Assembly: GCA_030867685.1 (NCBI GenBank)
Contig: JAQOWU010000007.1
Span: 1,116,001-1,180,000 of the forward strand
From: Wickerhamiella versatilis
Lineage: Eukaryota
DNA: 64,000 bases
Direction: 5' to 3'
Shown: positions 45,331 through 48,055 of the stretch, piece after piece
Layout: each line of letters opens with the position of its first letter
How positions within the stretch are numbered: position 1 is the first letter of the stretch
Notes under the pieces: model-generated
What the model was told of the DNA's origin: nothing
The model's database searches: none
What the model saw: the letters and a program-made list of their open reading frames with translations, nothing else
Made by a program: the position numbers and the translations under genes

Positions 45331-45627
45331 TAAATGCTGTGTGCGGTGTTCAGGATGTCAAAACCAATAGAGGTTCTTCATATATATATAAATATCTGTG
45401 TTATTTATTTCTTGTTTTCTCAAGAACGGACATTCTTAATTTTAGATATAGGCTTATTCTCTGGTGCCACCTTGAATCAGACCAATATCCGAAAAGTAAC
45501 ACCTGCACTCACTATCAAAGACTGCAAAAATACAATTCAAGAAGCATTATTAACAAAAAAAGAATTCTAGAGTTTTTGATAGACCCTGGTTGTATCTATA
45601 TATTCCTTGTTACGTAAATATAATAAT

Positions 45628-46134
45628 ATGCTGGCGAGTGCGATAAATCTGAAGAAGTGGCTTGAGGAGAATGAGCATCTTTTAAAGCCTCCGGTAGCTA
45701 ACTATTGTATTCAGCGTGGTGGATATACTATAATGATCGTTGGGGGACCTAATGAGCGGACAGATTATCACGTAAATCAGACGCCGGAATGGTTTTACCA
45801 GTATAAGGGTAAAATGGATTTACGTGTAGTGGATGAAGGGAATTTTCGGACGATTGAAATTGGTGAAGGTAGCATTTTCTTGCTTCCACCAAATATCCCT
45901 CACAGCCCTGTGCGTTATGCCAATACCGTGGGAATCGTTGTCGAACAAGATAGACCCAGTGGGCTCAACGATATGATGCGTTGGTATTGCGATAAATGCT
46001 CTTCAATAGTGAGGGAGGTCGAATTTTACATGAGCGACCTCGGCACGCAGGTGAAAGAAGCTATTGATGACTTTGATAAAGAGCCTCGTTATTGTGATCA
46101 CTGTGGCACTCGAAAATACAGCAGACCTTTGTAG
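45628..46134 (+). CDS. BNA1: 3-hydroxyanthranilate 3,4-dioxygenase (de novo NAD synthesis)
   Basis: [43 protein letters not shown] and C..CG rubredoxin-like pairs. Confidence 0.96.
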
Positions 46135-46509
46135 ATAGTGCGATATTTGTAACATTTTGAATCGGATCTTTTCACATTTGCTAGATTTATATATATTTAT
46201 ATTAATTAAAGCATAGTGACAGAAACCATATGCTTGATTACTCTTGATGAACAAAGGTAGGTTGAATTCTTAAAAATAATTTCTGAACGATATTATCGAG
46301 ACTAGAATGAAAAAAAAAGTCCTGAGCAAACACCACTCAAAGCAAGAGACAAGCAAAATGTAATATAAATTCAAATGCAAATGTAGTGCAAGATGTTATA
46401 GTTAGTTCTGTTCGGACCACAAGAAATATTTACTTACAATGTTAGCAGATAGGCATCACAAGAAAGGCAGTTTAGCAAACAGTTGAGCTGTATCAACACA
46501 CTATACTAA

Positions 46510-46906
46510 GATAATGTGTTGGCTAAACCTTCAACCACAAAAATTCGCCTTGCAGAGGGCATGTTCCGTCGTTAGTTGCCACAGTGGACTCCTAGTCACT
46601 CGATTCTTTAAATGTGAAATTAAATAAATCACGGGGAACGAGTGTACAAAGCAAACCCCTCTGGCATTGTAGGGTGACCGGAAACCTCTGCTACATAAGT
46701 GGCAGGGTCTCAAACCTACTTCCAGTTTTTTATATGAAGCTGAAATCCACTTCACTACCTGAGACTGGTTGGACCAGTTTGGAGTCCCTGTTGATTAAAA
46801 TAGTCGAAACAGTAACTACACTTCTGCGAAAACACGAACCTTCTTATGACGCGTGGTTTGTTCCCGCGAAGCAAATTGGTAATATAGCCGGTTTCTATTG
46901 ATAATA
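46510..46906 (+). ncRNA. Unassigned highly structured candidate ncRNA (multi-branched ~280-nt core, 46550-46829)
   Basis: At least eight nested or adjacent helices found by eye in a gap with no credible ORF; G-U pairs favour the + strand for the core (details under findings). Confidence 0.5.
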
Positions 46907-46928
46907 CGTTACTTCATATATGATAGGT

Positions 46929-47840
46929 TTACATTTTCACCAGATTGGAAGTATTTATAGAACGTAGAAAAATAACCACAATCTCCATAATTGGACTATA
47001 ATCGGCATACTTTGCCAATGAATCGTGACCGCCTTTCGCCTCCATATACACAGAATCATTGTCCAGTTTAGACAATTTTATCCACTGCTCAATAGCAGGT
47101 CGCAACTCCTCTTCCTCTCCTAAAGTCACCAGCGTGGTTGGAGGAAGTATCTTGTTCCAATTAATATAATCTTTATATGGGTTCAGTTCCGGTGCACTTC
47201 TTTTTACTGGATCAGGTTCAAACATCTCACCGAACGGATTTACAGTGTTGAGATCCACCCATGGACTCACGAAAACGCCTGAAATCGACTTTTCGATACC
47301 TTTCAAGGGCTCGACTGAGTCGAATGGCTCTATTGCCCCATGCCGTAGCATGATGCAAAAGAGATGTGCCCCCGCTGAGTCGCCAAGTAGTATGATTCTC
47401 GAGCATGTCTCTTGCAACTTATTGTAGGTGCCTACCATATACTTTAGTTGTTGTGGAAACCTTCCCTCGTATACCAAAGGGTAGTCGACCCACAATATGG
47501 AAAGGCGTCTATTACCCACCTTTTTCCAGATTGAAAGCAACATTCGAGCCATGGGCGGGAATACACCTAAAGAATAGCCCCCACCATGGGCATATAGAAG
47601 AACTGGATCTTCAGGTTGACGATCCTCTGCCTCTATGAACCACTTGACTCTGCCAGCTTCTATTCCATCAATTTTACTGAATGGCGTGTCAAAGTTCGGT
47701 GCCCCCACAAACCAGGCTTGAAGCCTTACCGTGAGAGCATTAAAGCTCAAGGAGAGATGTGGTAAAAAACTAGTTTGGCGTAATATCAGCCGTAGCGCCC
47801 GGTCCGAAATACTCAGCAGAATCGACAGATATGTGGACAT
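46929..47840 (-). CDS. Alpha/beta hydrolase, HSL-like (Say1/Mug180 steryl acetyl hydrolase-like)
   Basis: DPVLLYAHGGGY oxyanion motif, LLGDSAGAH nucleophile, VSPWVD, GEEEELR, GGHD. Confidence 0.82.
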   Translation of the reverse strand: MSTYLSILLSISDRALRLILRQTSFLPHLSLSFNALTVRLQAWFVGAPNFDTPFSKIDGIEAGRVKWFIEAEDRQPEDPVLLYAHGGGYSLGVFPPMARMLLSIWKKVGNRRLSILWVDYPLVYEGRFPQQLKYMVGTYNKLQETCSRIILLGDSAGAHLFCIMLRHGAIEPFDSVEPLKGIEKSISGVFVSPWVDLNTVNPFGEMFEPDPVKRSAPELNPYKDYINWNKILPPTTLVTLGEEEELRPAIEQWIKLSKLDNDSVYMEAKGGHDSLAKYADYSPIMEIVVIFLRSINTSNLVKM

Positions 47841-48055
47841 GTGAGTGGTACGTACTTCAAAGTGTTTCAAACAAGCAGGAAAATCAATTCTACAGTAGTA
47901 CTAATATCAATTGAAGATCAACAAATACCTATCTTCCCCAAGCACTGAGGGGTTGACCAGGATGACTCAGGTACTTAACGGCGGGGTGTACAGAAAAAGT
48001 CTATATAGAAGAATTTAATAACGATAAACAATTGTTTACAGAAATTTATATAAAA

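Follow-up and report, generated by a model that had tools for sequence, protein, structure and literature searches.

Telomerase by its textbook definition reuses one self-aligning template. Proposals of dimeric telomerases in yeast and human reportedly involve two co-operating templates and a primer that passes between RNA templates; these templates are said to be identical, and switching between them is said not to have been shown to be required. The Wickerhamiella versatilis locus described here encodes a telomerase-like RNA (RNA A) that has a diverged paralogue (RNA B), and in this pair the sequences themselves would make switching obligatory.

Closest in plan is the telomerase RNA (TER) of the Yarrowia clade. 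The available sections of PMC6746865 likewise describe a template, a core-enclosing helix, a triple-helix-type pseudoknot and a three-way junction (a candidate one here), an intergenic single-copy gene, and a 5′ splice site and branch point beyond the 3′ end. The Y. lipolytica TER has ~950 nt; RNA A is predicted to have ~435 nt. This is outside the range given for fungal telomerase RNAs (900-2400 nt, in the accessible part of PMC9564094), and RNAs A and B would be less than half the reported fungal minimum. Compared with the budding-yeast TERs in the excerpts available, the template here is shorter than one repeat, does not self-align, and needs a second gene.

Telomerase RNA paralogues are described in plants, Andrena bees, Tribolium, and Zygosaccharomyces sapae (excerpts of PMC12133305, 10.1101/2025.04.29.651168, PMC13023368, and PMC8211666). 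As far as these excerpts go, the systems share with W. versatilis at least two duplicated RNA genes, different templates, and apparently one TERT; in them each working copy makes its own whole repeat, whereas neither RNA A nor RNA B is self-sufficient. Both Tribolium RNAs are active alone and the two bee repeats alternate at random in the sections available. Copies without an annealing site are treated there as defective. The product here is one uniform compound unit.

Long telomere units occur in K. lactis (25 nt), Tetrapisispora (25-29 nt), and, putatively, Pichia norvegensis (43 nt; accessible parts of PMC8211666 and PMC7857110). The 41-mer of W. versatilis is likewise long, complex, uniform, and located at chromosome ends; unlike the units in those excerpts, it lacks a G-rich end-running strand and is not spelled by any one template. 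Given the putative P. norvegensis unit, 41 nt is near the longest putative length and not a record. Two 9-nt pieces of the 41-mer are absent from part 2 of 3 of the supplementary table that lists the P. norvegensis unit.

The locus and its transcript

The locus lies within positions 1,116,001-1,180,000 of contig JAQOWU010000007.1 (assembly GCA_030867685.1). We call this 64,000-nt stretch the window, and coordinates refer to it unless a contig (C1 to C8) or locus (L) is named (Table 1). A gap between BNA1 and an alpha/beta hydrolase gene holds a structured segment; a first-pass annotation, made from the letters alone, had put the gap at ~800 bp, and it measures 794 bp. The best named matches of BNA1 are ~70% identical and come from budding yeasts. 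The GC enrichment reported in that annotation is also there (0.42-0.44 in the segment vs 0.30-0.36 in the flanks), and all nine helices it listed can be found at their coordinates.

The annotation had proposed a comparison of folding energy with shuffled controls. The fold of 46510-46906 does better than the controls, modestly and alike on both strands (z -2.54 on plus, -2.58 on minus; 1/100 shuffles as good on each), and prefers no strand. For the predicted mature minus-strand RNA (46872-46438), z is -3.43 and 0/100 shuffles are as good. No Rfam model reaches its gathering score anywhere in the window, none matches credibly in 46100-47100 at E ≤ 10, and the telomerase, snRNA, snoRNA, SRP, and RNase P/MRP models give nothing credible for RNA A or RNA B. 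Likenesses to U2, RNase P/MRP, SRP, and hammerhead RNAs, seen by eye, were dropped as they had no model support.

Table 1. Coordinates of the RNA genes, their predicted parts, and neighboring features
Feature	Position	Strand	Remarks
BNA1 (3-hydroxyanthranilate dioxygenase; neighbor only)	45628-46134	+	Pfam 3-HAO
Alpha/beta hydrolase (neighbor only), directly upstream of RNA A, same strand	46929-47840	-	
RNA A, predicted mature telomerase-like RNA, ~435 nt	46438-46872	-	5′ end read-supported; 3′ end predicted
Long-range domain-closing helices	46547-46832	-	46832-46823 with 46556-46547; 46818-46814 with 46577-46573
Conserved small hairpin upstream of core	46788-46812	-	conserved C-A mismatch, one compensatory change
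Core-enclosing helix, 5′ strand, 6 nt upstream of template	46781-46791	-	pairs with 46592-46581
Half template A, complement of repeat positions 2-29	46747-46774	-	28/28 identical to C4 array unit
5′ part of template A (positions 21-29); product would be a primer fitting template B	46766-46774	-	overlap 9 nt
Alignment region of template A (positions 2-6); would pair with end of B product	46747-46751	-	overlap 5 nt
3′ flank of template A, copied into two dispersed insertions	46737-46746	-	C4:67373, C4:81959
Stem-loop arm between template and pseudoknot	46669-46719	-	sequence not conserved in B
Predicted telomerase-type pseudoknot	46595-46659	-	same pairing in A and B
Pseudoknot stem 1	46659-46656 with 46636-46633	-	
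Pseudoknot U-rich loop	46655-46648	-	
Pseudoknot stem 2	46647-46637 with 46605-46595	-	ends in two U-A pairs beside A-rich strand
Core-enclosing helix, 3′ strand	46581-46592	-	variant 46590: U-A to U-G on minus; variant 46582: pair broken on both strands
Sm-site-like run, then hairpin	46538-46545	-	no counterpart at same place in B
5′-splice-site-like hexamer, predicted spliceosomal cleavage site	46432-46437	-	B: L068 1324-1329
Branch-point-like hexamer without close 3′ splice site	46401-46406	-	B: L068 1363-1368
RNA B, diverged paralogue	L068 897-1323 = G000:C7 ~1992042-1992468	+	830 kb from A, same contig
Inverted near-duplicate segments	L021 start, L024 end; L016, L017 near 1.1-1.4 kb; L030, L034 ends		

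Four sequencing runs were mapped to 45500-48000: X11 (DNA), X21 (random-primed RNA), X24 (poly(A)), and X19, which is RNA only by our guess. RNA A forms a separate coverage peak in X21, with a depth of 39-55 across 46508-46843 compared with 0.8 at 46172-46255 and 11 at 46844-46927, and two RNA runs contain it as a discrete non-coding transcript. In X24 the 5′ ends of the two flanking mRNAs, BNA1 and the minus-strand hydrolase, are marked on opposite sides by the template-switch adapter; behind 46872 there is a further loose end, of the kind seen at the hydrolase (8 noisy reads, agreement 0.51). This puts the start of a minus-strand RNA at ~46872. The reads leave the 3′ end ambiguous, with starts at 46503 (22/84 in X24) and 46302 (5/7 in X21), and a stand-alone X19 contig spans 46433-46859. 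The RNA is predicted to be ~435 nt long, or at most ~570 nt if it ends at 46302. The segment 46510-46906 first singled out holds a transcribed, structured non-coding RNA, whose predicted 3′ end lies beyond that segment at ~46438.

The locus is a real transcribed RNA, on the strand opposite to the one first proposed: the plus-strand reading is contradicted by the RNA reads, by strain variants, by the orientation of the template, and by the paralogue. Five strain variants were mapped to helices. Those at 46557, 46590, 46627, and 46689 keep or improve minus-strand pairing, and two of these four would break plus-strand pairs; the fifth, at 46582, breaks a pair on both strands. The six plus-strand G-U pairs on which the original strand assignment was based are real and correspond to C-A mismatches on the minus strand, which counts against the minus strand, but the strand drawn from them was wrong. 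With the RNA on the opposite strand, the ANANNA box and the plus-strand fold of that annotation are mirror images. Its H/ACA snoRNA reading likewise loses its footing, as the H box is on the non-transcribed strand. The fold, too, gives no support to an H/ACA snoRNA: its long-range helices nest into one domain that includes a pseudoknot, unlike the order hairpin-H box-hairpin-ACA. An ACA occurs 2 nt before the predicted 3′ end of RNA A and is absent in RNA B.

RNA A starts 57 nt past the stop codon of the same-strand hydrolase gene, and at this spacing its promoter must overlap the hydrolase gene or the RNA must be cut from read-through. Read depth drops to 13-18 at 46891, not to zero.

A 41-bp terminal repeat

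A genome search with the BNA1-hydrolase gap gave two short extra matches, both to 46739-46776, and these led to a 41-bp repeat. Arrays of the 41-mer reach the very end of C1 on the right with 5.5 copies and that of C4 with 11.4. Near the left ends of C7 and C8 the arrays have the opposite orientation and are separated from the ends by other DNA, 1.8 kb on C7 and 3.1 kb on C8. The remaining contig ends have no arrays, and only two contig ends terminate in one. Words of the repeat have a depth of 12000 in the independent DNA run X11, compared with 132 for the locus. We read the 41-mer as the telomere repeat; the composition of its end-running strand (9 G and 11 C, not G-rich) speaks against this. 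We number the repeat from the C4 terminal array unit, so that position p is window position 46745+p.

Inverted near-duplicates are shared between contig ends (C7 right and C8 left, C3 left and C4 left, C8 right and C5 right); in the pair of C7 and C8, a 12-unit array in one copy corresponds in place to a 50-nt piece of the repeat in the other. The C1 left and C3 right ends (L014, L029) carry a longer repeated element with a 13-nt piece of the 41-mer and no array. C2 (33.9 kb; L015, L031-L033) is very AT-rich and looks mitochondrial, and C6 (2.2 kb; L019) is a Thr-rich coding fragment with internal repeats.

RNA A contains a proposed half template

The exact 28-nt match to the repeat in RNA A stands alone in the window, where the longest match elsewhere is 11 nt. 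Since 46747-46774 reads as the end-running strand, the RNA that uses it as a template must be on the minus strand, and RNA A is indeed the complement of the end-running strand. The match covers 28 of the 41 nt; the missing 13 nt (positions 30-41 and 1) were not found near the locus. Template A overlaps its own product by 1 nt on realignment. As this template is shorter than one repeat and does not self-align, RNA A is not classed here with the canonical TERs, which are self-sufficient; only A and B together provide a template that exceeds one repeat and can self-align. The earlier suggestion of part of a telomerase RNA was apt in so far as RNA A is telomerase-like, and it appears to be the whole of an unusually small RNA and not a part of a larger one. 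The first-pass description contained neither the match to the terminal repeat nor the second gene that completes the half template.

Two trivial causes of a truncated template were rejected. Misassembly or deletion does not agree with run X11, which holds the stretch in one piece (five other letters and one gap lie outside the RNA). An intron in the template was dismissed given that the RNA reads have no splice joint across the locus, that the template is intact and unspliced in X21 and X24, and that the missing 13 nt are not nearby. None of the strain variants listed falls inside template A.

A perfect 6-bp hairpin (46764-46778) overlaps the 5′ third of template A and can form on either strand; B has none. 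It could hide the hand-off region. Just past each template (46774-46779 in A, L068 996-1000 in B) the sequence resembles the RNA's own template start, over 5/6 nt in A and 3 nt in B. These likenesses may be remnants of former templates, 27 and 26 nt long, that were self-sufficient; no 27- or 26-nt repeats matching such templates occur in the retrieved DNA.

A paralogue with the complementary half, and one TERT

Twenty stretches around single copies of the repeat were compared with the window, and L068 alone had similar flanks. The local alignment of RNAs A and B scores 114, compared with a mean of 23 and a maximum of 43 for shuffles (n=500); among 168 tiles of the window the highest score is 44. 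BLAST misses the relation, as outside the templates the two RNAs have diverged beyond its detection. Template B corresponds to positions 21-41 and 1-6 of the repeat (27/27 match). Placed on the 41-nt repeat, templates A and B cover it exactly. The overlap is 9 nt from A to B and 5 nt from B to A, compared with 1 nt from A to A and from B to B.

The presumed 5′ end of RNA B is ~43 nt from the ATG of a divergent gene for an LsmAD (PBP1-like) protein, and a VMA21-like gene lies downstream. A structured RNA of ~850 nt at C7 1222000-1227000 (L146) has a longest repeat match of 9 nt and matches neither the pseudoknot profile nor Rfam.

We found one TERT gene, which encodes 766 amino acids with RNA-binding and reverse transcriptase domains and no stops. 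The protein (L081 274-2574, minus strand) is short and highly diverged; among 7999 candidates scored, one relative is 73% identical and the next 24%.

It is very unlikely that a third, unassembled or very divergent telomerase RNA has the full template and that A and B are partly deleted, redundant paralogues. The assembly of 8 contigs misses several chromosome ends and may be incomplete, chromosome interiors contain single copies of the repeat at full length (e.g., C8:309261), and bee paralogues without annealing sites have been called defective (excerpts of 10.1101/2025.04.29.651168). Against a third RNA, a genome-wide search for the pseudoknot motif gives two occurrences and no more, and a profile of the pseudoknot region matches nothing else in 139 kb and 727 kb (27 and 99 sources; less than one tenth of the genome), full-length copies of the repeat included. 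Nor would perfect halves that complement each other be expected to survive in both of two defective copies. As described below, A's flank is copied into genomic insertions, and B's boundary is where many dispersed fragments end. In metagenomes the pseudoknot motif had two chance matches in unrelated GC-rich coding DNA and no homologue in another species.

Structural parts shared by the two RNAs

Both RNAs have the same order of parts. The 5′ part has a 5′ hairpin, two long-range helices, and a small hairpin with a C-A mismatch; in the core, an enclosing helix 5-7 nt before the template is followed by the template, a variable arm, and the pseudoknot. The core-enclosing helix has 11 Watson-Crick pairs and one bulge in A and ten pairs (nine Watson-Crick, one G-U) of different letters in B; its outer part competes with the base of the small hairpin. 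The pseudoknot block is the most conserved part of the A-B alignment. By inspection stems 1 and 2 pair in both paralogues, with a hairpin inserted in loop 2, and a triple helix is predicted.

The arm between template and pseudoknot contains the variant at 46689 (partner 46704), which changes U-A to U-G on the minus strand. The arm sits where yeasts carry the Est1-binding helix. Both domain-closing helices also form in B, with G-U pairs on the template strand. Together with 46572-46557 they make a candidate three-way junction, in which the variant at 46557 changes A-C to A-U on the minus strand. In the two sequences compared, no common P6.1-type hairpin could be fitted at the conserved 46572-46557. 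A two-sequence consensus fold recovers the outer helix only and is too thin for covariation.

Beyond the predicted 3′ ends, splice-site-like and branch-point-like hexamers lie 31-39 nt apart in both RNAs. The pattern occurs once in the window, at this place, and five times in 1.31 million strand-bases of other loci. Cleavage at the splice-like site would give RNAs of 435 nt (A) and ~427 nt (B), and we infer that both 3′ ends are made by spliceosomal cleavage. This is the 3′-end route of Candida, fission-yeast, and filamentous-fungal telomerase RNAs (available parts of PMC4993307 and PMC6746865).

The shared architecture bears on whether A and B could be another pair of non-coding RNAs, for example snoRNA-like, each with a fragment of the repeat picked up by chance. 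Such fragments are very common (184 in 669 kb of mostly subtelomeric DNA) and no Rfam telomerase model matches. We consider this highly improbable all the same: within the structure the two matches occupy equivalent places, with the enclosing helix 5-7 nt before them and the telomerase-type pseudoknot after them, both are in template orientation without a mismatch, the two halves complement each other exactly, and A's flank is present in dispersed copies.

Dispersed repeat fragments

We took a census of repeat fragments in 669 kb from 69 mostly subtelomeric loci, with four array regions removed. The fragments are 14-59 nt long, and 181 of the 184 are unique. They occur about once per 3.7 kb in subtelomeric loci of C1, C3, C4, C5, C7, and C8 (e.g., L024, L040-L044), a density far above that suggested by ordinary interstitial telomeric sequence, and they are also found deep inside chromosomes. 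On five of the six arms sampled they are directed to the nearer end (toward:away counts of 46:14 on C7 right, 29:10 on C7 left, 10:2 on C8 left, 13:1 on C8 right, and 5:1 on C1 right); on C3 left they are unbiased (9:7).

The ends of the 181 unique fragments cluster at position 6 (39 fragments), the end of template B, and at position 7 (19), close to the one in four that would extend to 7 by chance. Other frequent ends are positions 4 (14), 2 (11), 40 (10), and 39 (9), and none is at 29, the end of template A. Of the fragments that cross the last part of template A, 99/104 continue past its end, and of those that cross the last part of template B, 34/91 do (Fisher p 2e-19), which fits an easy 9-bp and a limiting 5-bp hand-off. 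The fragment ends have a sharp boundary for B only. As for a boundary helix, there is no conserved hairpin adjacent to the template, and the enclosing helix is 5-7 nt away. An apparent G bias after position 6 was discarded, being absent in the census (C 15, G 13, A 11).

A's flank has been copied along with the repeat. Of nine fragments that start at position 2, seven have A's flanking base, and the 3′ flank is copied over 10 nt in the insertion at C4:67373 and over 8 nt at C4:81959. The latter begins with A's flank and continues through positions 30-40, a part of the repeat present in template B alone. The copied flank supports, indirectly, the predicted TERT binding of RNA A and its templating of telomeres. 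B's flank has no clear copy in the fragments (one chance-like 5-nt match and two weak 3-nt read-throughs). In genome-wide read-through patterns A is at background (13 vs 22 in the control) and B has weak 3-nt cases only. The retrieved DNA contains 0 repeat junctions of the A-only or B-only kind.

A-only plus B-only sequence is contained in 90/181 fragments, and single insertions of 46-56 nt cross both junctions. If A and B were joined as RNA, by trans-splicing or ligation, into a full template, the enzyme would be conventional; these 90 fragments, with both junctions crossed without error, and the splice-type signals in both genes would agree with that. We regard such joining as very unlikely, as the RNA reads contain no joints and the loose ends listed include none at the edges of A's template, as the splice signals are at the 3′ ends and not at the templates, and as the core of each RNA is complete before and after the template.

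Alternatively, each RNA might add isolated half units at breaks, with recombination building and keeping the regular arrays. The B-to-A priming is weak (5 bp), the majority of the dispersed fragments fall short of a full unit, and arrays are found internally as well, all of which would suit this explanation. It does not account for the 46-56-nt insertions with both junctions, nor for arrays that abut unique DNA abruptly, two of them starting at position 21, the start of template B, and we hold it to be most improbable.

A probable relay between two half templates

We therefore favor the reading, at a probability of roughly 80%, that the template is divided between two telomerase RNAs, one of them encoded at this locus, and that telomerase relays between the half templates. 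RNA A would template positions 2-29 and RNA B positions 21-41 and 1-6. A chromosome end at position 6 would pair with A over 5 nt, and A would add 23 nt; the new end would pair with B over 9 nt, and B would add 18 nt and restore the end at position 6. One cycle would thus give 23 + 18 = 41 nt. Since neither RNA realigns on its own product, strict alternation would be forced and a uniform 41-bp repeat would result. The hand-off could take place between separate enzymes or within one complex that holds both RNAs. The binding of TERT by both RNAs, the hand-off itself, and the expression of RNA B are predicted here from sequence.

The enzyme is probably an obligate two-template telomerase, with one TERT and two miniature RNAs, neither of them self-repeating, possibly in one dimeric complex. 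In the open-access literature, we found neither complementary half templates nor a telomerase RNA in this group, and we found no precedent there for the relay mechanism.

If true, two obligately alternating RNAs would break the textbook rule and be a new way to build chromosome ends. Each added base would reveal its source RNA, and the relay would thus be a natural read-out on a long-standing question, the passage of a primer between templates and the work of the enzyme as a dimer. It would show that a telomere unit can grow by addition after duplication of the RNA gene, and explain why RNAs of this kind would escape standard searches, which look for a template of 1.5 repeats, or be taken for defective copies. 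With ~430 nt, RNAs A and B would represent a naturally minimal form of the fungal telomerase RNA that lends itself to reconstitution and structural studies. The same ability to hand off may explain the many fragments written into breaks across the gene-rich subtelomeres of W. versatilis, and other very long yeast repeats without a findable template may be built likewise.
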